Shown: piece by piece, positions 20,270 to 51,700 of the stretch
Numbering within the stretch: position 1 is the stretch's first letter
Layout: every line of letters begins with the position of its first letter
DNA from: Haplodiscus bocki
Taxonomy: Eukaryota
Reading direction: 5' to 3'
Length of the DNA stretch: 64,000 nt
Assembly: GCA_965655095.1 (NCBI GenBank)
Contig: OZ296649.1
Span: 76,384,001 to 76,448,000 of the forward strand
The notes under the pieces: generated by a model
What the model saw: only the letters and a program-made list of their open reading frames with translations
Told to the model about the DNA's origin: nothing
The model's database searches: none
Made by a program: the position numbers and the translations under genes

Positions 20270-20650
20270 GGATCATTTAAGCTATACTTTAGAGGTTCCT
20301 AAAATTTCATATCCCCTTTTTACGCAAATAATTTGAAATCCTTTTTTACTGTAAGGAGAGTATACATTCAAGCTCGAAAAAATAGCTTTTGACCTCTGCG
20401 AGATGACAAAACTGTCATCTTTTCAGACTACTAAGAAGAAACATTTAGCTTTAGACAAACCACACTTGGAAAAAATATGAAAATACTTTCCTAATCAAAG
20501 CAAATAAAGCTATCAGTCAATGAAACAGAACATTTTTTGATTGCTTTTAATTGTTAATTTCTCTTCATAATCCAGATTGAAGACATAAATATTCATAGGA
20601 TTCCGTTAGATATATCCTTTCCTTTTCATCGTTAAAAAGTACTTATAAAA
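20270..20650. repeat. Inverted copy of 14630-15010
   Basis: Reverse-complement matches as listed for 14630-15010. Confidence 0.8.
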
Positions 20651-21735: not shown

Positions 21736-21805
21736 TGACAGCGGTAGGCTTTGGACAACAAGGTTCTCAAGCAGTAGGTTCGGAGTTCGAGTCACTGCCC
21801 TGCCA
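21736..21805 (+). repeat. tRNA-like/SINE-head remnant
   Basis: A-box-like cagcggtagg, B-box GTTCGAGTC at 21785-21793, ending in cca. No intact cloverleaf. Confidence 0.3.
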
Positions 21806-21819
21806 AAAATTTTTACGAT

Positions 21820-23543
21820 TTATCCCTATCATCATTTTTCGATACCCGAAACTAGTGAAACACTAAGGGGTTCCTACGAAAATTTTCGGCACTGTGAGAC
21901 AAAAAGTTTTCGACGGAAAATCGTGAATCCCCCCTTCTCTTATCCCTAACATTTTTCGATACCCGAAATTAATGAGGCACTAAAGGATTCCCCTACGAAA
22001 TTTTTCGGCATTGCGACACAAAAAAATTTCGACGGAAAATCTTGATACTCCCCCCTCCCCCCTCTTATCCATAAACTTTTTCGCTACCAGAAATTTTCTG
22101 AAACACAGATCAGAAGAGTTCCTCCACGAAATTTTTCGGCACTGTGAGACAAAAATTTCGACACAATATCGTGACATAACTCTCTGAAGCATAAAATTTT
22201 TCGATACCAGAATTTTTCTGAAACACAGACGGGTTCCTCGACGAAGTTTTTCGGCACTATGAGACGAAAATTTTTCGATGGATAATCTTGATACTCCCCC
22301 CCTCCCCTCTTATCCATTAACTTTTTCGCTACCGGACATTCTCTGAAACACAGCACAGAAGGGTTCCTCTACGAAATTTTTCGGCACTGTGAGACAAAAA
22401 AATTTCGATACAATATCGTGACATAACTCTCTGAAGCATAAAATTTTTCGATACCAGAAATTCTCTGAAAAACAGACGGGTTCCTCGACGAAGTTTTTCG
22501 GCACTGTGAGACAAAAAGTTTTCGACGGAAAATCGTGAATCCCCCCCCCCTCTTATCCATAAACTTTTTCGCTACCAGAATTTTTCTGAAACACAGATCA
22601 GAAGGGTTCCCCTATGAAATTTTTTCGGCACTGAGACAAAAAAATTTCGACACAATATCGTGACATAACTCTCTGAAGCATAAAATTTATCGATACCAGA
22701 AATTTTCTGAAACACAGACGGGTTCCTCGACGAAGTTTTTCGGTACTGTGTGACGAAAATTTTTCAACGGAAAATCGTGATACCCTTTTGCATAACGTAC
22801 AGAAATGAGTTGTGGAATTGATGTTTGTTAGAACTCTTTGAAAACTAATATCAATACAGTAGTTTTGATTTTAACCGTTTGCAAAAGTTGATCAAAATAT
22901 TTGTAGTTGGGCGAAAAATATGCCGGTGCTAGCATATTACCATTTTACTATTTATCCTTAACAGTTTTTGATACCCGAAATTAGTGAAACACTAAAAGGT
23001 TCCTATACGAAATTTTTCGGCGCTGTGAGACAAAAAATTTTGACGGAAAAACGAGATACCCCCCTTTTCATCCATAAAACTTTTTGAAACCAAAAATTTT
23101 CTCAAAAACAGTAGGATTCCCTTACGAAAGTTTTCGGCACTGTGAGACATAAAAATTTCTACTGAAAATCGTGATAAGCCCCCTCTTATCCATAATTTTT
23201 TTCCGATACCAGAAAAATTCCGGAAAACAGAAGGGTTCCTTTACAAAGCTTTTCATTTCGGTCCTGTGAGACAAAAAATTTCGACAAAACCGTGATGCCC
23301 CCCGAAATTTTCTGAAACACCGAATTTTTTTTTCGGTACTGTGAGACAAAGAGTTTTGAACGAAAAATCGTGATACCCCCTCTTTTGCATAGAATATAGA
23401 AATCAGTGGTGGAATTGATGTTTGTAGAAAACTTTCACAAACTAGATTTTAAACAATAGTCTCGTTTTTAACCGTGGGCAAATGTTGATCAAAATATTTG
23501 TGTTCCTGCGAAAAATATGCCGGTGCTAGCCGGCCGTCTTGTT
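21820..23543 (+). mobile_element. Helentron/HINE-like element dimer containing a ~120-bp satellite array
   Basis: Units start cgMtaccMgaa at about 21840, 21957, 22082, 22202, 22327, 22449, 22570, 22691, 22970, 23085 and 23204. The 3' tail occurs twice (22790-22935, 23385-23543), ending cgaaaaatat-gccggtgctagccggc-cgtcttgtt (subTIR plus hairpin). Confidence 0.8.
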
Positions 23544-27346: not shown

Positions 27347-27667
27347 CTTTGAGTATCGCTTCCATGTTGCATACGGGTTAGTTGAGTAAAGAGTAGGGCC
27401 ACTCTGATCGAAGTTAGATCGCCGTATCACCCGAGGTGCATCGTATGATGTCTGTCGTTGTTCAGTTAGATTACGAGGACCAGTAGGTTGGTAAAACCGA
27501 TGGCTTTCACCAATACTGCCGCGTTTCTCATTGTCAAATGCTATGTTGGTACTTGAGCGGTATATTTCATTGCTACCTCCGTGAAAATTACGCTGATGGC
27601 TAACCAAACTGCCATGAGTATTCATTCCCACAAAGCTGCCGCTTGGGTTATACGGACGCATGTTGGT
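27347..27667 (-). CDS. Most upstream recognisable exon (321 nt, phase 0-0) of the synaptopodin-like gene
   Basis: tttatttttctag|ACC AAC ATG ... TCA AAG|gtagga. ATG at 27661 has A at -3. Joining the exons from this ATG, including the microexon, gives 1992 nt (663 aa plus stop). Confidence 0.72.
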
Positions 27668-27742
27668 CTAGAAAAATAAAATATTGTACACTCATTGACC
27701 TAACATATCATTCAAAGAGACTGAATTCGTAGCTAAATTTAG

Positions 27743-28011
27743 AACACAGAGGCGAGGCGGAACATTGCAACACATTCTGACTTGTCAGTTGAGATCGTGG
27801 ATCACAAAAAATGAAGCTGTCAATCAAAAGGTTGGTCGAGAAAGAGTCAAATTGAGACAAGCACCTGTTTCAGGGTCTTACTAGGAAATTTGTTATGTTA
27901 ATCATGTCTTCCCAGTTTGAGCCATTTAGCTGCCCAAATTTTAGGGCGTTTGCACCGTAAAGACGATTAAGTACCTACCACAGTCTCATTTAAAAATGAT
28001 AAATCAATCAT
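27743..28011 (+). repeat. Same MITE-like family, copy 3, interrupted by the large Gypsy element and resuming at ~42576
   Basis: acacagaggcgaggcggaacattgcaacac at the start. The subunit continues after 42575 as tcatgttttccaggtgactccattttgctgcc. Confidence 0.6.
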
Positions 28012-28735
28012 AGTGTTAGCAATTGTAACTGGAATCAAACTGAAATTGAATCACTTTTAGTAGCTCAAACTAACTGAATTAAACTTATTTGAACCAATTG
28101 AATTGAATCTCAGTAGCTAAAATCAAACTTCGAAAAAATTTAATAGATAAGCCTGTTTATTGTTCGGACTCTCCTTTCTTCGGCACTTCGAACCTTGAAA
28201 ATGAAGCGCGGCACAAGCTAAAAGTCAAAGAAAAACTCAGCAAAAGAAATTTTTTTTTTGCCTAATTTAACATCGATTTCAAAAGACATTTCCAGTAAAC
28301 GATTTTGAATACAACTCAAAACCAACTGTACTTTCTTGGGTATAATTGATTTGAATTTAGTGGCTATCGTCAGTGCGTGGTGTGAGGAAAATTCTGTTGA
28401 AGACTTGGAGAACTTATTTCAAAAAAAGTCAACTATTCAGAAGCAATACCGAAGCAATCAGAGTATTCATCAGAGTAATACACTAGCCGACTTCAGGCTT
28501 ATTTCAACGGCTCAATTTTTTTATTGTGAAAAGTTTTCATGTTTGCGTGCAGGTTAGTTTTCCTTGAACTCGGTTCATTTGTCAATTAAAATGTGCCTAT
28601 ATAGGTGCACTTGCTTCTTCTCTTGTTTCCATCAGTTGAGATTCGGGTAGTCGACCTTGATTAAGCCATTGAAAATTTTCATCATTTTTTACCCAATCCA
28701 TGTGTTGGTCTTCAACCACCATGGAAGGTATGGGG

Positions 28736-31700
28736 TGTTGTATCTTAACCGACAAGTAAGATGGCGTCTCAGCAAAACAAATGTAACATAAAGTAGTTAT
28801 TAATTACCTAGAAACATCATATAAGACATATAAGCCTGAAAGACACAAATAACTTTAATCAAGCGAAACAATCTAAAATATCAGTTTACAGTCAACACAA
28901 TATATCTACCGAAATCAGTCTTATTGAAAATAATCGTCCAAATGAGTTGGCTTTAGCTTATTTCGAGTAGATATTCGAATCGGTTGTTCGGCACTTGGGA
29001 CTACTGTTTGAACATCTGTTCGACACTAGTTGGATCGACTGGACTAGCTAATAAGGGTTCGTCGATTGGCTGTTTGTCGGATACTTCATCGATAGGCTTT
29101 TTGTCGTCACTTCTACTTGCAGTCGTTATACGCGGAATCATTTCCTGAGAATACTGAGTTGGTTCGATTTGCTTTGGAATGAAAGCCGTATTGAATGATA
29201 CATGTCGCAAGTATGAGACATTTCTGATTACTTTATGTCCTGTTGCAGAATTAACAATTTCGTACGTTCGCTGGCCTTTTATTCCAATTACTTCCCAAAC
29301 TATATCAGGAAAAAAAGGACCACTTTCGGTTGACGGAGGAACAAGCGACGATACCAGATCCCCTACTTTAAATTGAGATAAAGTTGGTGCAGGCTATTTC
29401 CACTTTTTACTGTGTGTTTCTTTCATATACGCCTGGTACTTCTCATGGTCTTTATCTAAGCCTTTGAAACGGCAGGTTGGAATATCTGTCACGATTTGTC
29501 GATTTTGCAGTAAATATGCAAGTTTTCCAGTACTTGCGGCGTGAGATGTTGCGCGAAATATGTGCAAAATTTCTGGCAAACATTAAGGTATAACAAATCT
29601 TTGCAGTTTAGCCGCACGCAGTGAATGATTAAGATAACGATGAAATCTTTCAAATTGAAAAATTGATTGCGCATGTAAAGGTGCACAGCAAATACGTTCG
29701 ACAATAATTTTTTCAAGAAATTCACGAAATGCGAAACTTGAAAATTGCGGTCCATTGTTGGAAACAATTTTTTGTGGGTTTCCAAAACGTGAAAAACGAT
29801 CCTTAAGGCATGCAATAACGGCTCTAGTAGTTGTTTCTTTCGATTTATATACTTCGGGTCATTTTGAATAAAAATCTTTTATAGTCAGGTAGTGATCAAA
29901 TTCAAACGAAAGTTTATCGATGCCAAATTGTATCCATGGTCCTTCGGGTCGCTCAACTGGAGACAAGGGTAATTCCTCCTGTGGTAAAAGTTGAGTGCAA
30001 ATGCGACAATCGTTACACATTTCTTCAATCTCGCATGACTTACCAGGCCAGTATGCTGCATTTCGAAGATATTGTTTAGTGCGGACAATTCCTTGATGCG
30101 TACTGTGAGCCTTGGCAAGAAGATCTTGACGAAGACTTTTAAGAATGATATTAGTTCCGTTTTTAATTATGACATCTTCAGATATTGTCAATTCGTCCTT
30201 TAAACGACACCATGTTTTAAGATTTCTTTTATAAATTGGCTTTTTCCATTCATTGCAAATTGTTGTAGTCAAAATCCGTAAGTCTTCCTCTGCTATGGTT
30301 GCGGTTCGAATCGTCGTAAGGGTATTTGCACCACATAATCGGACTAATGATACCTTTTTTTCAGTTTCAATTTCTGAATCGTTGCTTGAAGTTCATTTGT
30401 TGAGTCTTGAGAGAGCATCTGCAATATTTACGTTACTAGGGTGGAATATCAACTCGAAGTCGCAATCGGCAAATCGATCAACTATGCGCTGTAAACGAAT
30501 AGACGTAGCTTGGTTTTTGAAAACTCTAAGTAAGGGTTTATGCTCGGTCACAACTGTGATTCGTTTTCCATATATGTCGTTATGGCATTTCGTTAGTCCA
30601 TTATATATAGCTGATGCTTCCCATTCGATATGCGCATAGCGTTGTTCCACTTTCGAGAAAACTTTGAAACAAAAAAATACAGGTAGCCAATTTTGGCCTT
30701 CTTTTTGCAAAAGAACTGCACGAGATGCGGAAGGTGATCCATCGACTAGTAATTCATGCTCGGCTTCGATTCGGTAAAGTGTAAGACAGGGTGAACTACA
30801 AATGACAGATTTTGCTTTTCGAAAGGCAGCTTCATGTTCTGTGTTCCACGTCCACTTCGTGTTCTTTCTGTTGAATTTGTGTAATGTTTCCAGAAGAGAT
30901 GCCATGTTTGGGATGTATTGCTGTAACAAGCTACTCGAACTGAGGATCGAGCGTAATTGACTGACGGATGTAGGTCTCGGCAGATGAGTTAAGGCTTCTA
31001 CTTTACCTGGATCAGCACTCACAATAGTGTTGCCAACGATATGGCCTAAAAATTTAATTTCGTGCTTCAGAAATTCACATTTCTTTTTGTTCATTGTTAC
31101 GCCATATTGTACCATACGATCCAGTACAGCAAAGAGTCTTTTATCGTGTTCTTCGCGTCTTCTTCCATGAACGGCGACGTCATCTTGTAACTTGGAGACA
31201 CCGTCTAAACCTTGTAGCACCAGACTCAAAAGTAAATCCATAGCATCAGATGCGCCATTAATTCCGAATGGTAGTCTTTTGAATCTGAAGTGACGCCTAA
31301 AAACGGAAAAGGTCGTAAAATGACGTGTTTCGTTTGTCAATTCAATTTGTCAGTATACTTTTCTCATATCCAGTTTTGAAAAGTATTTGCTGTCGGAAAA
31401 TTGAGCCAGCAAATATTGAACATTCGGCATAGGATAATGATGACGGACGATAGATTTGATAGCTAATCTCAATTCGATTGTCAAACGTGGTTCCTTTGAT
31501 TCATTGAGGACTACATGAATCGGACAGATCCACCGTTTTTCGGTGCATTCTTCAAAAACACCCAGATATAACATCTTCTGGATTTCATCTTGCGTCCAAG
31601 ATTGCACTGCATAAGCCGGAACCGGTTCTTTCTGCGCAATAGGTGTAGAATTTGGTTCAATTTTTATGTCGTAGCTAAATTTTTTGATTGCTCCACTAAA

Positions 31701-33147
31701 CAACTGTGGATATTTTTGATATATGTCGGGCATCCTTGTTGAGCGTTCACAATCTTGTAGAGGAGTTTTACAAGACATACTCAAGGAATTGATCCTTGCA
31801 TCTAATAATCCCAAATCGCGAGCTGCTAGAAGTCCCATTAAGTGAGTCATCCATAACGTAAATGTCGGTTTTAATGTGGCGTCCAGACAAACTTAATTTA
31901 GCCGTAAACATGCCAAAACAGGACAGCGGCTTCTGTCCACAGCCTTTGAAATTCATTGCAGGCTTCAGTTCAAGCTTGGACTTGCCAATTACCATCAGAG
32001 ATGATAATGGTATAATACAAAACTTTGATCCGGTATCGACTTGCATTTGTAGGTCGATTCCATCCTTTTGATTTGATACAAACCATGAATCGGAATGTCA
32101 GTCGCCAATTTTTCCAATCATTTGGTAAAGCTGCTGATCCGCTATAATAAGCTTTGTAGAAGCATAACCAGGATCTTGAACAGTCAACTTTTGCGCAAGC
32201 TTCTTCCTGCAGACTGAGTCAAAGTGTCGTTTCTTTGTGCAGAATCAACAGGTAACGTTCTTGGCCTTGCTTTCGAGGGCACCACGGAAATGTCATGTCT
32301 TGTCACACGCAAAACGTTTGTGATCACTATTGCCTTTCTCTGATTTTCACTTAGGAATTGATGGTTTCTTAGATTGCTTGTGAACATGTTTTGATACAAA
32401 ATGAAGTGCTTGAATTCGTCATCGCAGCACTTTCTGGTGTTTGTTGAAGTCTACGAGCAAGTGTCCTTACTTTTTCTAAAATTAGACCATCTCTTTCTGT
32501 CAAGAGCTTCCCTCTGATCTTTATATTATGACATTTTTCGATAATTTGGCCGATAATCTGCTCATCCAGGTCGGCAAAACATCATATTGATCCCAATTTT
32601 CTCAAGTCAGATACAAACTTCTCAGTACTTTCGTGAGGCTGTTGTACGCGACATTCTAATCGTTATCGCTCTGCCCATTTGTTACCTTTGGGAGCAAAGA
32701 ATTCCGTCAGACGATCTTTTACATTCTTTGTTGAAGTCTTGTCACCTGTATGATTGCTTAGAACCGTCTGAACTGCTGGACCTGCGAGATGAAGTAAGGT
32801 TGCGCGTTGGACTTTATCATCTGCGTTGTCTAACTTGGATTTAGTCGAAAGAATCGATCCAACGTTTTCATTCTTCTTTGAGGTTGTAACATTCCGTGTT
32901 GACGGGTAGAATAGGAGCAGAATAATTGAGAGTTGTTGCCATGTTCAGGTTTTTCGATCAGATGATGACTGCGTCAATGTTTTATCTTAACCCACAAAGT
33001 AAGATGGTATCTCAGCAAAACAAAAGTAACATGAAATAGTTAATAACTACACGGATACATCATATAAGACATATAAGCCTGAAAGACACAAATAACTTTA
33101 ATCAAGCGAATCAATCTAATTTACCAGTTTACATTCAATACACTTTA
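28736..33147 (-). mobile_element. Nested 4.4-kb Ty3/Gypsy element (Mag-like) with ~170-bp LTRs
   Basis: LTRs 28736-28904 and 32978-33147; TSD TGGGG on both sides; PBS-like ttgacgcagtc next to the 5' LTR. gag with degenerate zinc knuckles, protease MQVDTGS, RT/RNase H (RLPFGI, LQDDV, NIADALSR), integrase (AHSTHQG...YWPG...CRIC). Confidence 0.92.
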
Positions 33148-35000
33148 TGGGGCAAATGTTTTTTGTTTATCCAGCTTGTGTGAGTTCAGGAAGAGCTTGT
33201 GAAGATTCTTGTAGGGATGTAGTTCAACTATTATTCTAAATTGTTGTGGAGCATTGAGAATAAATGCTGCAACTCCGATAACCAAAAAACTTTTCCACGA
33301 TGTTCAGTTCTCGAATTGTATTTCAAATGAGGGCCCCTGTATGGTTAGTTTCTGTGCAATAGAGTCACTTTTTTGTTGAATACTCTTTTTGTAATCATAT
33401 TGTAGTTGAGCCTGATCGTGGGGTTTGACATACTTGAGTAACTTCAATTCTGCTTCAATTTTCGTGCTATAGTGCTGTAGTCCGTCTACAGGTGAAAGTA
33501 AGCTGAGTAGACAGGCCCTCGGTTTGGGCAGCTCCATGTCCTATTTTACAGGTGGAATGTTTGCACATGACGATAGGAAATATTGGATAATGTTATTTTC
33601 CCCAGTTAACTATGTACCACAATCTAGTGCAACCAAACAGTTTCTACATGCCTTGACTGTTTTTGAACCTGCCAAGTTTGTGCCCACCAAAAAATCTCTT
33701 AGAATTCGAACTATGCTTGTGTTCAGGTTATAAGCCATATTCCATTAGCCAGATTTGTTGCTTTAATTTTCAATGGTTTTGGAACTGCCGCTGTATCACA
33801 AAATTGTGGTGCATCCATACTGTTTACGAAAAATAGAGTGAGGCATGACGAGTCTTAGGTTTTGTTGATAGGGCTTCATAACATATTCGATATTTGCTTG
33901 AATCAATATTTTTATCGAGTTTGACTAGCGAAGTTTCCACCAAAATTTCCGATACTGCCACATATTCTGTTTTGACATTCCATTTGATAGCCATAATATC
34001 ATCCATCTGCGGTAAAAATACCACTAATGCTTTGCACATTGTGAATGCTCTTTGTCGTGACGCAAATGGTTTTGCCTTTAACATCAGAAAACCAGAGTCC
34101 AATGTTAAAATGTCTAACAGTAGGCGTTTTTCATAAAATGCCAGAAGTTCTTGTTTTGGAAACACAAATGTAAGTCAATTATTCAAATTCTCTTGTGAGT
34201 CATCAACCACTTTTCAAAATTGCTCCAGACATTCTATAGGTAGTAGGAGCATGGGAACGTATTTCGAAGAAGAGACGGAACGGCGTTCCTTACACCCATC
34301 TTGAATGCCAATAGAGCTGCTCCTCTTGCTTTGACGTTGCTGGAGATCAGAGAAAATAGGGAAGAGAATGTACAGAAATTGAAATTCAAATGCTGTCCTG
34401 TATATAGGAATTGATTGAAATTGACCATGTCGTGAGTACTTTCTAGGGAAATTTGGAATTGATTCTCTATCTTTTGCCGTATCTCATTTTGGGTTTCGAT
34501 CAGTTGGTGTTTCGGTTTTGCAAAGGAGGGCTAATTCTTCATTTTTTCGCGTTTTCTTGTGTTCTTAGTAGGCGCTGAGTTTTGACTTATGCAGCAACGT
34601 TAGTTTTTCTGAGCGGGGCCGGGTGTAAGTGACTTGGTTATTGTTTTTCCAGCAGTTTTTAAGGCGTGTGGCGTCTTAGGTGGTGTTTGTGTTTTTGTAT
34701 TAGTTGCTTTCCGAGTGGAAAATGAGAAAAGAGCATGATTTAGTTTGTCTGCTATGTTTTGAGCTCACTGTTACCTATTGTAAGGTGACATGTTCTGGGG
34801 ATAGCCGTTGTCCGCTTCTCTCTTGCAAGATCTTCAGAGGTTTTTTTTCAGAAGAGGAGGTGTCAAAACGTGACCTTGAGTCAGCGGTTAATGTTAGAAT
34901 GATGTGCGCCGGGCATTCATTTTTTTTCAACGGTCGCTTTGTGAGTTTCTCCCCGGTGCTGCATCCTGAGTGTCTGGTTGCATCCAGCGTCAGTCCAACC
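33148..35000 (-). pseudogene. F-type (class I fusion) env remnant; C-terminal tail continues at 28735-28597
   Basis: Heptad-like IETQNEIRQKIENQFQ, then LMLKAKPFASRQRAFTMCKALVVFLPQ, EYVAVSE, a Cys-rich block (RICYE, FCDT, CRNC, DCG, SCA) and a hydrophobic TM-like WKSFLVIGVAAFILN. Confidence 0.65.
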
Positions 35001-38000
35001 TAAGATGAGCGTCAACTTATAAGCAACATGTCGCTGGGAATCTTTTGAAACTGTTGACATTTTTTGTTTGGCGTCGTGGCTTCCTGTGTCATCCAGAAGG
35101 TACGTTCTACAAAAACACGCTGATCGGCCTTGAATAATTTTGTTGGCGTAACTGTCTGTTGTTTTTTCAAATCCGCAAGTATTGTAGATTTGTTTTTGGA
35201 TCGTACTTTGTTTACTGTAATGGACTTGCACTTTGATAGATTTGCTATGTTGATAGATCTGCCATTTTGTTTTAATTTTGGTAAGTGATTTTAGTTTAGG
35301 CAAGCCCGCCGTCTTGGCATCTGATTTCAACTAGGGTTAGACTTGTCGTTAATACCTTAATCGCTCGCACTCTGTCATTGCTGTATTGCCATGTTTGAAA
35401 TGCGGAAGTATGATTTATTGCTAAGATTGTGTGAAGAGAATTTTAGTGCATTGGAGCCAACGTGTCTAGGAGGTTTGGCAACCTTAGCAGTCCATGTTTG
35501 TTTAAGGGGGTCTGCTGCTCCTACAAAAGAGTTAGTCAACAAGTTTTAGCTGTAAAGTGAACCAATAATAGCCCACTACTGCGATGTTTTGAAAAATGGG
35601 GCGATGAGGTTCGTAATTTGTGTTCATTTCCTGGAACAAGTGTGTTAACTGCACCGATGCCACGTCTTCGAGATTTGAATAAAACGGACTTTTGGTTGAA
35701 TAGGGCAATAGCACCCGCCAGTTCACGTCATGATCTTCTTCTCCTCGTAGCAACTGGTAATTAATCGACTCGTTGACTCAGGGATGATGACCCACCAATG
35801 GAAGTTGTTGCCTCAGTCTTACAAGGTCGGAAAAGCCGGGTGTTGTTCTCAAAAGGTTCCAGGGAAGACGCTCAGTTATCGAGCGTTAAAAAGCTAAATA
35901 ATTTCGGAAAAAATATCAAAGGAGTTAATTTTAAACTATTCAGAGGCCTGGAGACACTGTTAGCTTTCTTCCTCATCCTACCCATATGTTCCTCGCCGTT
36001 AGTGAAAACGAAAGTCGGAAAATTTTATTGTCTCATAACCTTCTACATCCTCCTGCGGTGGCTGAAAAAGTGGACTAAGATTGCTGGACTCTGACAAGGG
36101 CTAGCAAAGAACGTGTTCATCAGCGGTTGCGCGAGAAGATTCGGTACGCAAAAACATCGGACAGTCGCCACATAGTCTGGTGAGTGTAGTTTTTTCCTGA
36201 AGTATGAATGGGGGCATAAATATGTTCTCTTATGTCTGTCTTTAAGCCGACCGCTAGTTCATTTATCACCTATCAGAACAAACATTTTGTTAGGCGTTCG
36301 GGGAACTACCATGCGTCGAGCTAACTTGCAAATTTAACTCAGCCAAAGTCAGCGTTTTTCAATTTTTTTGTCCTTCTCTTTTTCGAAGTTGAAGCTTCTT
36401 TTTAGGTAGACTCTTCAGATTATCTGTTTACTCCACGTGCTATGACAGAGATCTAGTATCCTATTAGAACCGGCGTGCAGAATGCTTCATGCAGAGATAA
36501 GTAAGACTGCTCAAAACTTTGTTATTTTTCGGCCGAAAAGCTCGTCTGATGACGACAGGCACGTTGCCGAGCAGTTTGTGTACTTTATCTCAAATTATTT
36601 GTTCATAGTTTTTTATAGCTGGCTAAAAACCTGCCCTTACCATTGCATGCAGAAGTTTTTCATCCTGCATAAATTCCGGGGTGTTTTTGTTTGTCGAGTT
36701 TTGGCATTTTTGATCTTGCAGTTGTTCCCGTTGACTTTGGGAGTTCTTCTTGGCTTTTTTAAAACCTCTTGAGTTCATTATCAGTTTAGCCATTCCTTCG
36801 CCTTAAGTTGTGGTGTCGGACGCAATTTTTTACCGATAACTTTGTCTGCTGGAATACATCCTGTAGAAATTTGTGCACTTTTTTTGATTAAAGTTTGTCG
36901 CTGATTCGAGAACAAACAATATGTTTTTTCTGAAAGAGGATTGGCATTTGTTTTTAGGTCGTCATACCTCCTGTATCTGTTGAAAAAAATGGCGAGTCTT
37001 TCTCTGTCTGTCTGAAACTTTTTGAGTTTTTCATGGTGCATCGTGGAGTGATTCCACAAAGTTGTAGCTCAAGACTGACATTTGGGTACAGTTGCTTTAG
37101 AAGCGAAAATCCAAGGGCTTTACTGGGCCTCTTCCGTGGAAAATTACCGTTGGCACGCATCCAAGGGAAGTATGATAAGATGTGTGATGAGGGAGCGTTG
37201 CTAAGTTAAAGTATTTGTGCCCATTTGTAAAGGTTTGTTTAAAATTGAGTTCCAAAAAGGTCTCGTTAGTGCTGCATGTGCCCTTTTTGCTACTCCACTT
37301 TTTTGTGGGTGCTGCAATGATGCATGGGACACTCATAGTGCTAGTAGTTGAGTGAGTTCGTGTCAAAGATTTCACACAAACCGCGTTTCCAAGTCTGAGA
37401 AAATTTCTTGCGCTGTGTGACTGTGTTGGAACCTGATGGAGATTAAAGCCGTTGCAACTTAAATTTGCACTATTTGTAGTCAATGGTACTGCAAAAAGAA
37501 ATTTATTAAAGACATCAACAGCTGTGAGAACGTATTTGTACGGTAAGAACGGAAACGGTCCCAAAAATCGGCATGAGGTCTCTTGGGAAAGATTTCAATG
37601 TCCAAAACTCTTGTATGGAATCTCTTAGTTTTGAGGGTTGTACTCGTTTCATTTAGAGGCATGTCAAGCAGTTTTTGATATAGTTTTAATACAAATCCAC
37701 ACAGTTTGAGCAATAGAAAACGTTTTTTGAGTTCCTCAATGGTTCGCGTTTCTCCCATAACGTCCAGTTGAGAAGGAGGTTATTCCATCGTGTTCGAGAT
37801 CTTTTTTGTAAAATACTCGATTTTTTGAAAACGATCGTCGTAATTTACTGAGATACTTCTGTTCTTTTTCTGCAGAATTGATTTTTTCTGTAGTTGCGAA
37901 ATTGGTTTCCAACCATTTGATCTGCTTGATTTTCGCCGGGTCAGTGTTTTGTTCCTTTTCTAAGTTCGCTATAGTTGTTCCTATGTCCGGGTAGTCGTCC

Positions 38001-41000
38001 ATTGGGCCTTTGTGCTTAGCTGCATTCTTTTTTGTTGTTTTCTTTGTGTTTTTCTTTAATTGTAGTTACAGGTTTGATGTCATATTTTTCGGTTAGTGGA
38101 CAGCTTGATCACAGTTTCCTGATTGCTTGAGGAGTATCAGTGTGTTTATATGTACCACTTGAAGTAGATCAACAAGTAAATCGCCTTCAAAAACCTAGTT
38201 GACTGTGTTGTCTGGTAGTTTTACTCGCACATAATAATCTGTTTCGCTGATTCGGATTTTGTGCGTCATTTTCAATTCATTGTCTTGTTTGCATTCGATT
38301 TCAAGGGAGAGAGCAAAACTGCTGCAGCATTGGTTTTCCCCGGAAAATTAGTTACCACTCAGTTGACACCTGTAAGTTGGTCCACGTAATTGCATAGTGA
38401 AGGAAGAACTGCTTTGTCTGGGAAAAACCTAGTCACGTTTTTTTTGTCAGTCAGTGCTAGTACCGGTTTTTCATTTCCGCACTTGAATTGACAAAAAAGT
38501 TCCAAGGCGTGGTTGAGGGAAAGGAACTAGTTGCAAAACTTAGATTTCTTTAGATGCACTGTTTTGAAAATCATAGATCAGAAAGAAACAGGTGCATAGG
38601 ATCTAACAGTCTCTACTTTGTTGTTTTTGACGTCTCTTTCTATCTTTAATACAAATCAACTGGAGTGATTACTATTGTCACACAAACTTACATATTGGAG
38701 ACCTCGGTTCCCAAGTTGAAGTGTTTGTGTTGTCGTGGTCTCGAGATTTTCTCTGAGTATTGGGGAGCAAATTTCATCTCATTTGTATTTTCAATTGAGA
38801 CATTTTTCCGCAATGGGTTGTAGAAAGGCAAAAGTTTTTCAAACAGATTCGTGGTCAAACTGCAGAAGAATTGTAGGTAAAAAATTAAGCATTCCAAATG
38901 CTTCACTGATTTTGGTGTAACCGTTCTTTTGAAGACCTTTTCGATTTTGTGTTTTTCATCTTTTAGACCTTCTTTTGTTGGAACATTTCTGAACAAACGA
39001 TTTTTTTTGTACAAAAACACATTCTTCTGGCGATAGTTTGAGTTCTGATCTGCGTAAGCAATTGACGTTGAGCTGTAAATTGGGTATAAGTTGTTCAGTT
39101 GATTTCACAACACATCCAATATCATCCGTGAACTGTGTGCAGACAATGGTCGAGAGGCATGGTTCTAAGTAATTTCTCATGAAGGCGCTGAATCCCGTAA
39201 CTGATCTGTTCAGACCGCTAGGCAGTCTTCAGTAGGCTATAGTTTGCAAGTAAAACTGAATCCAAGCTGTTGTACTGGAGAGGAATCAGCTATTTGTACA
39301 CAAAAGTAGGCTTGAAACAATCTAGTTTACGAAATATTGATTTACCAGCAAAATGAGCTATCGTACCTGCCACCGTTGCAATCGGGAGTTTGTTATTATA
39401 ATAGTCTTGTATGAGAAGATGATTTATTCGGCGCAAAACCATTAAAATTCGAAACTCGCTGTCTGGTTTGCAGTGTGCAGACATTCGACTGCTTTATTTG
39501 GAATTCTTCAGGCTCATAATGTCGCCGAAGTATTGTAGAAGATCAAACTCTACTTGTAGTTTTTCACGTATAGGGATGAATTTTAGACGGCTTGTTTATA
39601 AGCCAGTTGGTTGTGCTCAGAAGTAAATCCAAAGTAAAATCTGTGCTTTGCAAAAAAATCTGAAAAATCGACCAATAACTCTTCGACTTGTTGTTTTTTG
39701 TGCGCATTGACTATAGAATCGTTTCATTTCAATCTCTGCAAGAAACGGTTGGGGTGTTCAATATTATTGTGTTGGCCTATACCATCTAAATCTTGTAGTT
39801 GCTGGAGTTCAATGAATAACCTTTTACCCACGCTTTTCAGTGTTAAAGGGTTCTGGCATGTTTTGAGCTTTGGGAACCAAAACTTTTTGTATTCTGGTTT
39901 TGGTTAAGGTAGTTGAGACTCTGCATCAACATCTTCATCAATTATCAACCGGGTGATTTCCTGCTCAAAAATTTCTGGTCTTCTTATTTTAGCCAATGTT
40001 AAAATTGCGGGTCCATCGGAAAAAAAGTTTCCGCTTGTTGTTGTGGAGGATTTTTGAAGTACGCATTTTCCAAATTTCGGTGAAACCTGATATCCCGGGT
40101 TCGGCGGTTAAAAGCAGATAGGCAAAAAATTCAACGGAGTCAGTTCGCGATGAAGAAGAAGTGATGCAAACTCCAGTCTTTTCTTCAAAACTTACTTTCG
40201 GTTCGAATATACCAAATAGAGCAGGCAGTCGTTTGAGTTTCGCTAGGAAATTAAATTTTAGTGTTGGTTGTTGATTGAGGACAATGACGCATTTTTCTAC
40301 TGTTCTGATAGTAAATTAGATTTTTCCTGTTTTATCTGATGGGTTGATCAACTGGAGCGTCAAGTCTGGTAATTTCATCATGTTCTCTTTCTAGTAAAGT
40401 TCAATGGAGTTATTTTTGAAAAATGGATATCCCAAAATGAAGCTATTCGTGTTTGGAGGTACTGAAAATTGATTTTTGAAAAAGCATTTGTTATGGAAAT
40501 TTCGAGTTGTATTTGGCCACGCACAGGTGAAAAACTTCCTGAGGCTATTTTAATTTCACTGATCTGAGAAGTTTGTGAGAATTTCGCTGTTCATGCGAAC
40601 GAAGAATTTAGGTACTCGTAGTGTCTTTCAATGATTAAAATTGCACAGGCACCAGCGTCTAATTTTGCTTTGTTTTGTTGGTTGTTAAGGAACTTCAGTG
40701 GGACATAGGATATGCTGTCTCCTTCAAGAAAACTGCATGCAGTTGTTTGATTTTGCTCGTTTTCCGTCTTCTGTTGCTGTTCTTCATACTAGCGCGGCTT
40801 CAGTGGTTTTTTGGTGCGGTTTGATACGGCATTTTTTGATTGCTACTCGCTAGTTTCGCTTGGTTACAATCTCTTGCGTAACGAATTGGTGAGCCACATT
40901 TGTAACATATCTGTTCAGAATACGTTTTTTCTGCGATATAGTCCTGGTTCTTTGATTCTTGGACTTGTGGTGAGTTATAATTGGAAAAGTAGTTGTATTT

Positions 41001-43699
41001 AATTCTATTTTGATTGCCATTGAAGTAGCTTTTGTTGTTATTGAAGTGACCTCGTTCTCTATTGTTGACATAACTGCGTTTTATAAATCTTCGCTGGTTG
41101 TTGAATTGGTAATTACATCACTGTTGAGCATCGAAACTGTTGTTGCCTGCAGTTGGATTTTGGTGGCTGGGAACGTTGAAGGTATCGATTTTCTTGGACA
41201 GATTTGCCTGTTGTTCATTCAGTTCGTGTTCTTGCTGTGTTAGTTATGTTTTTGTTCCAACAATGTTTTTTGACAAAGTTGAAATAACCCCATTGAAGAC
41301 ATCTTTTGTCCCGTCGCCACTTGGGCAAAGCTCAAAAAAAACATTTGGCGTTTTGCGACTGTACAAAAGTTTTTTACTGTTGTTGCCTCATTTTGGTCCA
41401 ATAGCTTCTTCTTGATGAAGTTTGCCATGCCGTTCCTGGAGTTTTCCTTGGTTCTCATTTGTCGCTCGTTAACTGCATTATCCAGTCTTGACTGGTTGGC
41501 ATCTTCCGCGTTCTGAATTTTGTCAATTTCTGTTTGGTTGTTCGGTGGGTCATTTGTCGGAATTGGTGGGTATACTGGGTCAGGGTAGTTTTGTCTTGCT
41601 TTAGTATGCACTTGTACTGAGAGCACATCTGTGCTACAGTTTTTGCGGTCGAATTTCAGGTTATGAAGCTGTAGTTTGTGAAATTCTCGGAGGTTTGGTT
41701 AGGAAAAAATATTTCTGAGTGCTGCTATTGCTGTATCAAAGTCATCACGTGTTGCTTGTGGTAGTGTACTGAAGAATTGTAGGGATCGATGATGTAAGTT
41801 CAGTTGCAGAAATTGGGTTTGGTTGACTTTTGGTACATTGCCAACTTTTATCAAGCTTCTGAGAAAACTTTCGAAATATGGCGGGTGTTCATATACGTTT
41901 CCACCGATTGGGTTCAGATTAATACATGGTTGTGGATTTGCAGCTGCCATTGTTCTCCAATTGTTGTAGTCCTCACGTCCTCTTTGTCATTATATAAAAC
42001 GTTTTAGGTATTTTTGATTTGACTTTAGGTTTCAGTTTCCATTGACTTGAAATCTTTCTTTAGTGGCCGTCTTTAGTGCGTGGTTTGAGGAAAACTCAGT
42101 TGTGGACTTGCAAAAAATTTTTCAAAATAACAGTCAACTTCTCATTAGAAAACCGAAGGGGTTCTCTCTCATTAAATTTTCTTATTTACAGCCTAATAAT
42201 AAATTCCTTTTGTTTTTTTATCGTGCGGAAATTAGAGTTCAATGTGTCCTCGTGGCATAAAGTTTCCTTGCTGATATTGGATAATTGTCTCGTGTCCGCT
42301 GGTTTATTGCTTATCTAGGTTTAGAAGTAGGTGCGTTGTCGGGAAGCAATCTTCCGACTTAGTAGCGTCAACACTTTTTGGTTCACTAAAAAATCAAATT
42401 GTTACATGCATTGCGTTTTTTCTAAATTTAAGATTTAAGATAATCGTCAGCAGATTTTTACACTAATTATTACACTAACTGAATCAAAAAAACATTTCCA
42501 TCTGTAACTGAAATAGGCCTTTCTCTTTGACAAAAACTCTAGTGTAAATCTGTTTTTGAATCAGTTGTTAACACTTATCATTCATGTTTTCCAGGTGACT
42601 CCATTTTGCTGCCAAATGCTCACGAACTTTTCATAGTAAAGAGCGCGAAAAAGAACGAGTAAACGCAAAAAAGAAGCCATTTTCACTTCTTGTGGTAGAT
42701 GATCAGACTCTATTGTGACGTCAAATGCAAACTTTGCAAAGAATAACAAAACTAAACGTAGGCCGGCTACCAAAATACATTTTCTCTTACACTCACAAAA
42801 TGTAACAAGATAACAGTGTAACACCAGGATTCAAGTTCAGCTTCTCAAATACGAAAAACACGTTGGAATGCCATGAATTCAAAATACAAAGGCACAAAAT
42901 TACACGGAGAACCAAATTTAATTTTTTTGCGAGAAGTTCAAATCTTTTCCTCAAAAAATAGTTTTCTGGGAGAGAACTTTGCTGGTTGTGTCGTAGGCAG
43001 ATTTGAGAAATATGGTGAAATTATTAAATTCATCGTGAAATTGCACACCCGGAATAAAAACTGAATGTTGAACGAAAATTTGTTCCAATTATGAAACATT
43101 GGGTTGAGAAGAATACAAAAACGGAAGTAAAATACACTTAGGATTAAACTAAGTTTGAAAAATTGGGTTAAAAAACACATCGTGAAAAAACGAAGAAATT
43201 AAAAATTTACATATCAGTGACTGATTTGAGGTTGCATACGAAATATCTTCGAAACTTGTAAGAAAGTTAGAGCTGCACACGTAAAAAAATCCCAAGCAGG
43301 AATTGCATTCAGATAAAAGTTGCACTCTGCCCATCTTCACTAATATTTTGAACTTTATCAACGTTGAAACAAATAAATCCAGGACCGTGCGTACCGAAGC
43401 CAGTATTTGTGAGGAAAAGCGTAAAAGCGACCGTGATCAACTAATCATAGTAAAAAAACAGTCGTGACCAATCTGCAGATACTTCTAAGTGTGTAAGGCC
43501 CGATACTGTGTAATATGTAAAAAAACATCTAAAGTTTCAAAAAGTGAAGGATAGATCTTTACAAAAGGTCGTCTTATTTCATGATTCATTACATGGAACA
43601 CTTGAAATAGACTTAAAAAAACACCACTAGATGCTCGTCCAAATCAAAACGACAGCATTTCTTCCTATACTGCAGTGGAAATAGCGTCTTCAAAACTTT

Positions 43700-45720: not shown

Positions 45721-48700
45721 AGTAATTCTCGGAGAATCGCTCCTGCAGGAGGTTCTTTGTTCCAAGATCCCGTCTTAAGAGTTCCTTATAAAGTCACATG
45801 AAAAAGTATAAATCGGCAGTGAGAGTGTGAAACAACATAGAAAACAAAAACACAGTTTAGGCGATCAAAAATTATTTAGGAAAGTAGTGTCAGGTCGGTT
45901 GAGTAAAACGATGGTCACGGTAGTTCCAGGATAATGTTACCGAAACCCTTCATTGGCTCCAATATTTTTGATATCTACAAAACGATTTTCGAGCTTTTAG
46001 CGGATCACCAAAGATGGAGATGACCTAGAACGCCGGACGGAACAGAAGATGAAAAAACTGAGAGGCCGGACTGTTTTGTATTCCGGCTTGTAAAATCAAC
46101 AATTCTTATCTACTGCACTTTAACGGACGCGCACTACGGGAATTTTGAGAAGAATGTTTGAGCTTTCAGGCCGCATTAATCTGAGAAACAAGTCATGATC
46201 CAGAGAAGACCTGCAACAAAATGCAAAAAACAGGTGATTCAATAACGATTTCTTTGAGAGCTTCGCAGTGTTTGGCTTTGAAAATGAACCCGAAGGAATT
46301 GATTGAAATTTGGTATCAGTTGGTACTCCGTGGATTCTTGGAACGAGTGTACAACAGTCTATTCAGACTTGCTTTGAGAAAAAACCTCGTAGATGCAGAA
46401 CTGACAATCGAAACAGTTTTAAAAGAGGCACTGCATTCTGAAGCCGTTTTTGAATTGAGAAAGAAGAAAAGGAACCCAAAGTCCCAGTTTTGCAACCCCA
46501 ACATACAGAAAAGTTGATTGAGTAAATGAAGATTTTTGTTGAATCTTTGTCTCGCTCGCGGTTTTAGCGGATTAAAAACCGTGATTCGTTTCGGTTTCGA
46601 TAAAGGAACATTTTCAGAAGGTGGAGATCAAAAGATGGTAATCAAAACAGAAGAATTGGGGATCGCAGCATAGGAAGCAGAGGGCGTAGCAACTTTAGAG
46701 GAGGCATATACCGAGCTCAAACTCCATGAAGTTGCAGAGGAAGGCGCTAGCGATCAAAATCTTGCAAGAAATTATCTCACTTGGGAGAAAATTGGGATTT
46801 CAACTGCGCACAAGATTGTAACTGGGCAAGGAAGTTCAAACTTTGCGTCCAGTGTGGAAATACAACCCATCTCAAGAAAACAATGCCCCTTTGTTAAAGT
46901 GTAAAAGGTTGTTCTGGAGATGGCGCCACACTAGTTCAATCGTTTTATAGCAACGGTGGACCGCCCGAGGGAAATGAAACAAGGAGAACACAAGTAAAAA
47001 ATTCCAAGCTGCTGATAAAATGCAACCTGTCTTCCAAAACCATAAATAGCGGCAGCATTGCATGTCAAATTAGCTGGAATTTCATACAATCAATGCAATT
47101 CAGTGGTTCACCGAAAACAACAAACGAAAACCTGCTCAGGTAAACGCCCGTGAAGGTAAACGCCCGTGAATGTAAACGCTTATAAATCCAGTCGAAATCT
47201 TCGCAGCCGATACTTTTGTTGCTATGTTACCACCGACCATGGACACAATTCCTTGTCTCCCGGATTTTATTTTTTTGACAGTAAATGATTGTATTTTGTG
47301 TGCCAAAGAACAAAAACACTTTCGCAAAAAATTAAGCCGAACAGTATGCCTGAACCAGAGAGCAACGACAAAGAGGTCAAGGGATCGGAGAACAAAGTCA
47401 ACACAAAATAGTCCAGCTAAGAGCGACAAATTACTGCATTGCGAAATATGAAACGACGAATAATCAAAAATTCAGAGCATCGAAGAGATGGTTACTTCGG
47501 TTCGGACTTTCCGGGATTCAAGTGGACTCTGCGTAGCACAAACATAAATTAGAGGTTTTGATGGACTTTTTTGGGGCTGTATAGTGAACTATCAAAACGA
47601 GAGGAGTTTTACAAACAAAAAATCGTGGGTGGGGATACTTGAAATTATTCGGGTTAGCATCAAATATTCTCTGTGCAGACAGAACTGACAGCATTCGTTG
47701 AACAAACAATTATTTTCGGGAACTCCATCAGCCTTGACGACCAACACTTATCCTTGAGAAAACTAAAGAAAGTCATAACTTTATGTCAAAAGTTACCAAA
47801 AACGTTATCGAAGAGTGCCAAAGACTTGGTTTTAGAGAACAAGATACAAAAACAAATCAAACTGATACTGGTTACGGAATCAATTTTTTAGGCTTCTGGT
47901 AATATGAGTTCCGTGAAAAGAGAAGCAATGGTACAATTTCTGGAAGGACTTGTTGAGACGGATCTAACGACTCCAACACATTCCGATTGGGCTGTTCCAA
48001 GCATCTTGGTGCCGAAAAAGTTTGAAACATACCGTCTGATTCTGGACTACCATGGTCGTAACGAAAAGAACTTGTTGGCTTCTTCGAAGAAATAAAGATG
48101 TGATCAATAGTTTAGGAGTTGCTTTGTTTTTCTCAAACGTTGATTTGACGTCAGGATATTATTTTGCTCTAAAAGTATGGAAGAAAGATGAAGTATGACT
48201 GTTTTCATTACTCTCATGTGCTGCTACAAGTAGTAGCGTCTACCAATGGAACTCGCTTCAGGAACTGGTACATTTCGAAACCCAATGTAATTGGTTTCCT
48301 GTAGGTGTATTTGGACGACCGGTTTGAGGAACTTCTTGAGAAGCATTTACAGCGCATGGAGCTGGTGATCACGCGACCCGAGAAAAACGGTCTGAAGATT
48401 GAAGGGTCCACATTAATTCCCTCTCAGAAGAAAATCTTTTTCAGTACATATTGTCTCAGAGAAAAGAAAAGAATTGAATAAAGAGAAAGTGGCAACAGTT
48501 AAAAAAATGGAAATAACCATGCAACTTAAAAACGGCACGTGTAATCGGAGTTTCGAAAGAAATTCAGGAACTCAAAATCAATCACAGAAGAATGGATGAA
48601 GTTTGTTTGGATGAAAGATTGCAGGGGTGTGGAGCAAGACTTGAAGAATACACTTATTTTGGCGCTTATTTTGGTCCACTGAGACAGCCGCGATGAGTAC

Positions 48701-51700
48701 ACGTTAACCACACACGCATCACTAGTTGGCCTTGGTACAATTTTGGCTCGAAGGGAAGCACTATTGAATAGATTTAATGCATATGCTAACAAGTCACCTC
48801 CCAAAATTGCAAAGAACTGTCCTGCAACGAACGCGAAGCTTTTCGAAGTAGTGCACTTTACATATGACTTTAAGGATTACTTGCTGTTCCCTAATTTTGT
48901 AATTGTCACACATCAATACAACGCTGTTACGATTGCAGATTTTCAAAGATTTTAACAATGTGACTGCGAGTCGGTTTTGAAAAAGTGCGGCAGGTTGACG
49001 TCGAAACAAAACAAAATGCGTTAAAAAAACTGATCTCATGCGGACTGTCTGTCACGAATGCTAGTCAAAGAGAACAGCAAAGTCACATTCATAAGTGCGA
49101 TAAAAGAAAATCTGTACACAAACTGAGACCTTTTTGGATAATCGATGCCAATCAATTTTAGCCACTGTCCGCAAAATCTTCCAAAAGAAACAAAATTAGG
49201 TTGGAAACCTCGCCAAAGTCTTTGGCGGCAAACGAATCGGAGACCTGATCAGCAACACGTGAAGGTGCCTCAAAAGAACTGTAGAGGGTTTGGATTGATT
49301 TTAGAGAAATTGAGAAAACTGTCGAGCTACTCTTCTTGAAAAGACAACTTGAGAAAGTTGGACAAGTAATGCAGCAAATACTTTTTACTGAGACTCAATT
49401 TCGACATAATTTTCATTCATTTCTTGAGTCTCCGTGGACGGGCCACTTTGATCTCGAAAAACAAGTCAGAAGGCCCAGGAGCTTTTTTTATCCCGCATTA
49501 AGCGTGATATGCGGGAATGGGTTGATAAAGTTACTAAACACCTGAAAAGGTAGGGAATGCCGGAGAAACAGAAACATAGTCATACAATTGGGCAACTTAG
49601 TCTCCATTTCTGGCGCGGGCCCGCGGATCTTTGATTCTGAGGGTTGCGAGTACAATTTATTAATCCTGGACCAGTATAGCGAAAGGTAGAAGTTCGTGAG
49701 AATGCAAAATAAAGAAGCACAACCTGTTGCCTGAACGTTGGTTGCAATGTTGATCACGAGATCTGGGTGCGCTGTCAACCTTCACAGTGATAAAGGAACA
49801 AACTTCATGTCTAACTTCTTCCAGAAACTCTGTAGGATTTTAGGAAGTGAACGGGATTTAGCGAATTCTTTCCAACATGAAAAAAGCACATTGATTGAAA
49901 GCACGAACAGCATAGTGGGAGAAACCCTTTCAAAGCAAGTGGCTGACAGGAGCATTGGTGGAAAAGTTATCAAAAGCTAAAAACAATGCCCTACCGTTTT
50001 TCAGATCAAGCACTAACAAAAGATTGCCTCTTTTGTAGTCCTAGGAAAGACTTGGAGACAGCAAAAAAGCTGCTTGCACGAGACAAGTCGTTAGGAAGTT
50101 TTTCTAATACAAAACGACTCCTTATTTTTTAAGGAAAGACAATTGCAGAAGGCGTATCAACTGATGAGATTAGAAAAAGAGGTAGAACAGAGTTGCCAAA
50201 GGACAAACTACGAGAATTATGCTCGTGGTTCCACATTGACTGAAAGCAAACAAAATCTTGTTTCCGTCCCAACCTTGAAAACTGGTGAATTGGAGAGATT
50301 CGGTTTTTTACAATGGATACTACACAATTGTGGAAATTGCCAACGATCTAAACTTTCAGGTTTAACTGAAGGAACAAAAAACTTATGTAAAATTACTTTC
50401 AGATATGATCAAAAATAACACAACAAGGCAGCAATACTTATTGCGAAACAAAAGCTGTCCGAAGCGAACGGAAAAGGTTCACCGGTCAACGAAGCGGATG
50501 ACGCCTTCATTGAACTTGAAAAGAAAAAACAGGACATCCAGGTCGTACAGAACGTAACAGTTTAGCACATCGGAGACACCGCATTGTTGCGCTTCATGGA
50601 AACGATCAAGCGAACACTGAATTCATGGTGGACAGTTAATAGCCTGAAAGGACAAAAAATCTTGTTTGGGTTCGAGGAGAACGTAGCAATCTATCACAGT
50701 TCTTTAAACGTTGCAGAAACACCTTGAGCGAAGAATCTTACATAAAACTTTGAACTTCCTCCCAGGGAAAAAAGCACTCGATTCCGCTCAGGTCCAAAAC
50801 GATTCGCTGATTACCTTGTCGATAACGAAGTTGATAATTCTTCTAAAGGCCATGAGGTTTTTTCTTCTGGAGGTAAAGGACCAGTAACCATGGACAAGAA
50901 AGGAGACTTGAACAATCAACGTAGGCAACTGTACGTAGCAATTTTGATCCACAATATCGTCAGCGGGATCAATGGGCGACGAAGAGAAGACAGTGGGACC
51001 TCAAGCAAGGCGTAACGAGCTCAGTCTTTTCCATAAGTGACCGACAATTATGCTCTCTGAATTGGAGTGTCAAAACCAATATAACCGGAGCATCAATCTA
51101 TCTTCACGAAAACACTCAAGACGTATAAATGAGACTGTGCTATTTTCAGGCCCATACAGTGTTGCAAAAATCGAAGAGGCTAACGTATGCGATGCTGACT
51201 TTTTTACCACCAAGTATAAAAAAACCCGATGTTTCACCTGATAGCAGATAGAACTTATAGAACTTGTCGGTTGGCATATGCAGGCATAGGATTCAAGTCA
51301 CCAAGTCTTTGAAAAGAAGGATTTCAAATGAGTATCACCGAAATCAATAAAATGAGCATCCAGAGGCGGAAACGTTCCAAACTTTTGACAACTCGACGGG
51401 CTTCAGGAATCAGAAACGTCGTGGAGCAGGCTTTGCACAGACTGTGGATTAAGTCACGCCACTACGAGTTGCTTTTGACGGATCCGTATTGATCAAGGGG
51501 AAACTTACGATAGGCCGGCCATGGTGAATTTTTTTACTTGGCAGAACTCTTCTGCAAATCAACTTTTGAGATTAGATTTGCTGGAAGACATAGAGCACGA
51601 TTTTGACTTTTAATTGGCTGGGAAAATATCAAATTGTGTTTGCTGGAAAGTTGTTATTTTTACAAACGAACAGGAAGCAAAAAAGTTTCGGGAATCGAAA

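Follow-up and report, generated by a model that had tools for sequence, protein, structure and literature searches.

Unlike ends of a decayed env-bearing Ty3/gypsy element in Haplodiscus bocki and their possible origin by recombination into a resident solo long terminal repeat

Introduction

How could an integrase-type retroelement come to lie in a genome without a matching pair of long terminal repeats (LTRs)? This question is raised by an insertion at positions 28012-42575 of a 64,000-nucleotide stretch of Haplodiscus bocki DNA (contig OZ296649.1 of assembly GCA_965655095.1, positions 76,384,001 to 76,448,000), which we call the window and whose numbering is used throughout. The original prediction, made from the letters alone, described a single gag-pol-env element with short inverted ends and one internal direct repeat (A/A′) between unique end segments X and Y, and proposed a family with a different priming or strand-transfer scheme. 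We found that the asymmetry of the ends, which carry no identical LTR pair, is real in this one old copy, and that the region holds two elements, the second nested in the env of the first. The best reading of the ends, to which we assign a probability of roughly 0.38, is that they are hybrid and arose by recombination of cDNA into a related solo LTR already resident at the site; such a one-off hybrid appeared somewhat likelier than a new mode of copying.

Results

The outer insertion and its target site

28006..28011, no strand: probable 6-bp target-site duplication, left copy, within the interrupted host repeat (5/6 to 42576-42581)
42576..42581, no strand: right copy of the probable target-site duplication (5/6 to 28006-28011), after which the host repeat picks up again
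28012..28025, minus strand: 3′ terminus, a 14-nt imperfect inverted repeat (12/14 to 42562-42575) with an LTR-type TGTT/AACA integrase motif and 2 extra nt outside it

The region 28012-42575 is one outer insert in a host repeat. Its termini are inverted, as had been claimed, matching at 10 of 11 and 12 of 14 bases, and their motif follows the consensus for LTR-type integrase ends given in PMC3601003. A 12/14 match is unremarkable alone, being reached by 12 position pairs in the region (shuffle mean 3.0), but 28012/42575 was the sole pair among them with a 5/6 flanking duplication. The interruption of the host repeat and the suspected 6-bp target-site duplication (TSD) were borne out by both empty copies of the repeat in the window (4462-4920 and 15742-16165). 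Each aligned to the left and then to the right flank with a 6-nt excess, and the TSD is therefore ~6 bp long, with the caveat that the shorter alignments may slip by one ~110-nt internal repeat unit. Among the features tested for Ty3/gypsy elements, short inverted integrase motifs with a 4-6-bp TSD were thus found in the outer element, whereas two terminal direct LTRs identical at insertion were not, a subterminal core of ~110 nt being all that the two ends have in common.

Coding regions and the nested element

40803..41950, minus strand: outer gag, ATG at 41950, broken; about 60-69% identical to 6 relatives over the first block
36626..40788, minus strand: outer pol, broken, in the order protease, reverse transcriptase, RNase H, integrase (PR-RT-RH-IN); RVT_1 at 38959-39228; collinear with the intact relatives P0153, P0023 and L001
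33143..35800, minus strand: outer env, F-type, with stops and frameshifts and an approximate 5′ limit; 54-64% to relative P0154 in 4 blocks
28597..28735, minus strand: C-terminal tail of outer env, past the nested element; open frame, supported by empty-site contig joints
28736..28899, minus strand: nested 3′ LTR (TG...CA), 145/164 to the 5′ LTR
29004..32944, minus strand: nested gag-pol, without env; RVT_1, RT_RNaseH and Integrase_H2C2 above cut-off, rve at E 1.6e-7; 5 stops in 963 codons of one frame
32965..32976, minus strand: nested primer-binding site (PBS), tRNA-Ser type, 10/12 to a listed tRNA-Ser end by eye
32978..33142, minus strand: nested 5′ LTR (TG...CA), 88% to the 3′ LTR by self-alignment

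Without the nested insert, the outer element is 10.2 kb long, lies on the minus strand and is heavily decayed; it runs from gag (from 41950) through pol and env to the env tail ending at 28597. The intact relatives collinear with outer pol carry RT, RH, H2C2 and rve domains, and the best Protein Data Bank (PDB) match of P0153 was Ty3 Gag-Pol (E 5e-45). The outer element accordingly has the PR-RT-RH-IN pol with gypsy-type RT and the gag open reading frame (ORF) upstream of pol that are typical of Ty3/gypsy. The gag of relative P0157 lay nearest to atlas clusters of PNMA/retrotransposon gag (0.92-0.93), which we regard as a lead only.

The env assignment came through one of two relatives: P0154 narrowly passed Baculo_F (25.8 bits against a cut-off of 24.1), and P0155 gave no match. 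The feature that marks errantiviruses in the operational sense of PMC13524379, a third ORF with F- or gB-type ENV, is thus present via P0154 only. The env fragments of the window alone gave no Pfam match. Env gave nothing below E 0.7 against PDB by sequence and a fold prediction of unusable quality (pLDDT 29.7), and the env fragment had an uninformative likeness of <0.8 to atlas clusters. Near 35670, outer env has a furin-like RRR|G motif. By its coding, terminal-motif, TSD and polypurine tract (PPT) features, the outer element is an env-bearing Ty3/gypsy element, though one that lacks the paired LTRs.

The description as a single gag-pol-env element had overlooked a nested gypsy of 4.4 kb (28736-33142) sitting in outer env. 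Its LTR pair (145/164 = 88%, Kimura two-parameter distance (K2P) 0.126) is the strongest repeat of 28012-42575, so that A/A′ is not the only direct repeat there, as had been stated. This element has its own RT, RNase H and integrase domains, and we found in it the LTR pair with TG...CA, the tRNA PBS and the gag-pol of an ordinary gypsy element. The corresponding empty site in env was seen in contigs of other copies, which join 28651 to 33159 and 28721 to 33160. One 7-nt sequence occurs in both flanks of the nested element, shifted on the 5′ side by 3 additional bases, so that the TSD is irregular.

The direct repeat is conserved over its core only

42159..42575, minus strand: X′, unique 5′ segment comprising the earlier X and the poorly matching part of A; begins with the 14-nt inverted repeat
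42041..42158, minus strand: A core, 5′ copy, 89/109 to the A′ core
42030..42041, minus strand: primer-site candidate with TGG start; 10/12 to an Oikopleura element PBS and 10-bp pairing with 42148-42157
41951..42040, minus strand: gag leader; contains the greater part of a 35-nt block (42030-42064) that the 3′ end lacks in the second register; a diverged version occurs in another copy (joint 42037 to 28365)
28612..28633, minus strand: purine run resembling a PPT, within the tail of env; each 15 nt include 13-14 purines
28455..28611, minus strand: U3-like spacer whose AGTG start at 28611 adjoins the purine run; its homology is weak and limited to 42159-42270
28345..28454, minus strand: A′ core, 3′ copy of the ~110-nt repeat, 89/109 to 42041-42158
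28336..28360, minus strand: 25-nt stretch like the gag leader at 42004-42028 (second register of the repeat end), 84% over 25 nt
28012..28335, minus strand: Y, unique 3′ segment, with short motifs in common with X but not a collinear copy; AATAAA at 28161, 150 nt from the end

The direct repeat itself was confirmed: 28345-28566 against 42041-42270 matched at 159 of 243 positions (65%), with a score of 111 against a shuffle maximum of 45.5. As a repeat of ~280 nt it stood only in part. The core of ~110 nt is strong (89/109 = 82%, K2P 0.21). Beyond it, similarity is weak over 112 nt (70%, p ~0.003) and falls to chance over the final 46 nt (p 0.40). Downstream, the repeat end can be drawn in two registers, stopping at 42041/28345 or running on to 42004/28336 with a 35-nt block at the 5′ end only. 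X and Y are not copies of each other, as described, with no significant alignment in either direct or inverted orientation (p 0.09-0.30); they have 17 equally oriented 8-mers in common, where random window segments have 3.5 on average and 16 at most, an excess that parts of one unit might show. The folded core was no more stable than its shuffles, and a perfect 12-nt palindrome in the gag leader (41995-42006) may be due to chance.

We compared this unevenness with the age of the copy. Over the first block of gag, the 6 relatives are 74-90% identical to each other and this copy is 61-69% identical to them. These protein identities gave a decay of ~0.12-0.13 per base, which would be an upper bound should the relatives form another subfamily. 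Under simulated decay at 0.10-0.13, the core was compatible with a pair identical at insertion (P 0.04-0.57), whereas the low score of the 158 nt upstream was reached in 0 of 1000 simulations in each of four settings (rates 0.10 and 0.13). The joint probability of uniform decay from an identical pair was <=4e-6 over 10 settings. Therefore, only the core was identical or nearly so at insertion: it is old enough for such identity, whereas the upstream part was not identical then.

These numbers bear on two conventional explanations. In the first, an ordinary element whose LTR is A (about 260-290 nt, TG...CA, with a PPT before and TGG after) would have inserted into an unrelated X+Y of ~570 nt, itself a solo LTR or a miniature inverted-repeat transposable element, and its core would later have been gene-converted. 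Nesting is common and is seen again here at the env empty site; the PPT followed by TG at 28609, the CA+TGG at 42043-42041 and the motifs common to X and Y also fit. However, uniform decay of an identical pair is rejected. It is the core, and not the upstream part, that agrees with the age of the copy, and the numbers therefore do not call for conversion. An inner TSD at X|A and A′|Y was not found, one 4-nt match over all boundary pairs tried lying off the expected ends, and the 25-nt leader-like stretch after A′ is left unexplained. Although the core-leader junction seen in other copies (below) suits such nesting, no empty-site joint of X+Y appeared among the joints listed there, and we consider this history rather unlikely.

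The second explanation, which the original prediction had itself named as fatal to its idea, is deletion. Two full X-A-Y LTRs may have been trimmed, the left one of its Y and the right one of its X, or the 5′ end may have lost a spacer-core-Y LTR of 600 nt. The copy is old and rich in indels, the env alignment to P0154 (~840 nt) passing through three frame changes, and the 600-nt 3′ unit resembles a complete LTR. Against this, what is left of "X" at the 3′ end has diverged far too much for the leftover of an identical LTR, the gag start and env tail have both escaped loss, and the losses would have had to be precise enough to leave a TSD against a 12/14 inverted end. Since Y is also missing between core and leader in other copies, this explanation is weakened, and ordinary LTRs trimmed by deletion are an improbable source of these ends. 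The claim that no canonical LTR pair is present therefore stood, and deletion explains this poorly; the step from one decayed copy to a family with another priming or transfer scheme goes beyond the evidence.

Other copies join the core directly to the leader

Other copies were sought in four contig sets aligned to the window at 80% likeness, which come from one study with at most two samples and possibly include the window's own source; all statements on joints refer to the joints listed (15 of 214) and to the rows giving the letters in between (12 of 26). A joint of 41989 to 28356, carried by two contigs in each of four runs, combined gag-side sequence with a core closer to A′ than to A, across a gap of indefinite length. 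In the joint of 42037 to 28365 (run X2), 25 letters lay in between, against 30 in the window, leaving no space for Y, and the core was again closer to A′. One contig tied an A′-like core to 42213 in X′ (21 letters), and three joint rows contained other Y-like sequences with indels. Among the joints listed, no X+Y empty site, Y|X junction or solo X′-core-Y appeared, nor was X or Y tied to gag or env of another copy.

In read depth, the A′ bin exceeded the A bin in all 4 runs, a crude comparison because the A′ bin also holds a nested LTR. The depth of X′ was ~2-4 times locus depth; that of Y is inseparable from the host repeat and gives no copy number. The host-repeat block 27743-27860 is very high-copy, with depth hundreds of times locus level in 4 of 4 runs and many contigs ending at 27743-27746 and at 27796.

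Contigs of 92-93% identity over 41711/41932-42319 were rejected as independent support, with run X2 at half flank depth there (20 against 39). The 92-94% contigs are probably alleles or duplicates of this locus, and one 94% contig has the nested junction too. The allele-like contigs differ by ~1% at the Y end (27798-28239) and by 6-9% in env and the 5′ end (33001-42319). No second complete copy was found in viral, genome or metagenome contigs: viral contigs held 0 relatives, genome contigs 0 by protein (one motif match in them had no further similarity and was taken as chance), and none of the 56 loci in metagenome contigs matched the termini (the best two blastn matches were weak, E 0.003-0.007) or spanned both ends. 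A related gypsy contig without evident env (L004:2296-9577) has, between pol end and gag start, a 7-kb region in which ORFs on the opposite strand and clusters of palindromic 28-nt motifs occur, and a TGGTGAC site ~800 nt before gag.

A proposed origin of the ends by recombination into a resident LTR

The following history would account for these observations. Integrase would first have inserted an LTR-like unit X′-core-Y (~860 nt, with AG-TGTTA...TAACA-CT ends and a TSD of ~6 bp) into the host repeat; in the simplest case, this unit was the solo LTR of some related subfamily. An F-env Ty3/gypsy element, with a shorter LTR of its own that had the same conserved core and a different U3, may afterwards have recombined into X′-core-Y through the core, as cDNA or as a one-LTR circle. 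The product would read old U3 and core, leader-gag-pol-env, PPT, new U3 and core, and old 3′ part. A second gypsy would then have entered env, and the whole locus decayed.

The core K2P of 0.21 fits the decay of the copy and the upstream 158 nt do not; the 3′ unit has an AGTG/TG start behind a run of purines; integrase motifs of the LTR type are present at the outer ends, and Y contains AATAAA. Other copies join leader to core without Y, their core is nearer A′, and the A′ bin is deeper. Recombination through the core would explain why the core is conserved and its upstream part diverged, why other copies have a core-leader junction and a core nearer A′, and why the repeat end fits two registers. 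R/U5 is generally better conserved than U3 (PMC3601003), and Tf1 cDNA yields hybrids by integrase-independent insertion into resident related Tf2 elements (PMC11042837). The free-standing X′-core-Y LTR, the recombination step and the position of the crossover are our reconstruction.

Several points weigh against this history. No free X′-core-Y was seen and no joint of Y to a 5′ core appeared among the joints listed. The preference for A′ from 28365 on requires that the crossover fell within the final ~10 nt of the core, unless A has simply decayed more. Y may be several-fold deeper than X′ (by an uncertain estimate, 8 to 237 against 39, run X1), which a hybrid does not predict. The precedent (PMC11042837) is from yeast, and most events there are tandems with a common LTR rather than an expanded solo LTR.

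Primer sites and a possible family trait

The purine run 28633-28612, read from the sequence as a putative PPT, is followed by AGTG at 28611 as at an ordinary 3′ LTR start. On the other side of the coding region, the TGG site at 42041 matched the best listed tRNA end at 9 of 12 positions (by eye, not exhaustive) and the PBS of O. dioica errantivirus_4 at 10 of 12, also by eye. This candidate leaves the original statement that no PBS was visible neither confirmed nor refuted. The site can also pair with the first core bases in a 10-bp helix with 2 G-U, a pairing equalled by 35 of 20000 random window pairs in a post hoc test; two other leader sites pair about equally with the same core bases. 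Tf1-type geometry holds only if the RNA starts near 42157, and the second register puts the primer site inside the repeat. There are no tRNA genes in the window, and Rfam gave 0 matches over 27500-43000.

These sites matter for the alternative closest to the original idea, that an env-bearing Ty3/gypsy family regularly integrates as X′...Y, with an integrase motif at each unique end and a short internal repeat only. In one self-consistent version, X′...Y would be a molecule with one LTR that was opened where Y and X meet in a palindrome, and would correspond to the minus-strand span before second-strand transfer. Spacer-core-Y (600 nt) would be its single LTR and the 5′ core an internal promoter copy, with the second strand transfer and tRNA priming dispensed with. 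The best inverted match and the TSD indeed lie at the start of X and the end of Y and not at the ends of A, and the 3′ unit alone reads PPT, AGTG...CACT. Core-leader-gag without Y in other copies, the Y-like sequences in three joint rows, the contig with an A′-like core to 42213, and a TGG site that no listed tRNA end matches with 2 or fewer mismatches (best 9/12, by eye) are likewise compatible with it.

Yet no joint of X or Y to another copy's coding parts and no Y|X junction was among those listed, and X′ depth is only ~2-4 times locus depth. Other 5′ cores are closer to A′, suggesting homogenisation of the core, and simple R-type transfer, as we infer, cannot regenerate X′ or Y. An internal complement of the ends, as in the internal complementary region (ICR) of DIRS-type elements, or a copy of the junction occurred at chance level. 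We therefore regard a family trait as doubtful, though a serious candidate, and we leave a slim chance for histories outside those named.

Comparison with known elements

Tyrosine-recombinase retrotransposons of the DIRS/Ngaro type have non-identical ends with inverted or split repeats. The outer element differs from them in having a DDE-type integrase relative and a TSD, and their internal complementary region or split direct repeats were not found in it: self-alignment shows none, and end matches were not above shuffle.

Closer are the env-carrying Ty3/gypsy "errantiviruses" in the operational sense (PMC13524379), which have the same gag, PR-RT-RH-IN pol and F-type env (here via P0154). The outer element differs from them in lacking an identical LTR pair, in its ~6-bp TSD and in a primer-site candidate that, by eye, has more than 2 mismatches to every listed tRNA. 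Of the 1512 elements in that survey, 1151 carry an LTR plus a PBS and 361 are not so annotated, and the part of its table consulted holds no acoel names (PMC13524379). The AGTTA...TAACT ends of the Zam clade (PMC3601003) resemble the AGT...ACT of the outer element. The Oikopleura Tor elements, marine-animal Ty3/gypsy elements with env, are alike in these features and in the candidate primer site (10/12 to the PBS of an Oikopleura element); their copies differ in having near-identical LTRs (98.5%), 4-5-bp TSDs and an R/U5...U3/R RNA (PMC4402516).

In self-priming Tf1/Tj1, as in the outer element, sequence just past the repeat can pair (10 bp) with the repeat's first bases, but Tf1/Tj1 have two identical LTRs and a mapped RNA start (PMC4600332). 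Tf1 insertions into resident Tf2 give hybrid LTRs with a sequence switch within the LTR (PMC11042837), whereas such a switch is here deduced from one decayed locus. In the open-access literature, to which our search extended, no paper on asymmetric or LTR-less gypsy families with this layout was found.

Should recombination into a resident LTR be the correct history, the locus would be a natural animal case of cDNA recombining in this way, of modest interest, and a warning that dating by LTR pairs can mislead. Were the layout common to a family, it would mean that a retroelement of the integrase type can maintain its ends in the absence of an LTR pair, contrary to the two-transfer model of reverse transcription. 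LTR-pair finders would then overlook such elements, and some of the 361 of 1512 env elements in the survey (PMC13524379) would merit re-examination.

Other repeats and reading frames of the window

A third decayed gypsy-type element occupies 46185-54500 on the plus strand, with RNase H at 48683-48952, an integrase-like region at 49350-49950 and no LTR pair by self-alignment. The window further contains a tandem duplication at 1087-4361 (unit ~1636 nt, 75% identity), an array at 21800-23540 of ~117-125-nt units with a higher-order period of ~245 nt, and two dispersed repeats, each with a second, inverted copy 5.5-6 kb away at 70-72% (11031-11487 with 16514-16913, and 14623-14910 with 20357-20666). 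Minus-strand ORF pieces between 7770 and 27667 (333 aa at 7770-8768, which had no Pfam match, and shorter ones) resemble exons of one host gene.

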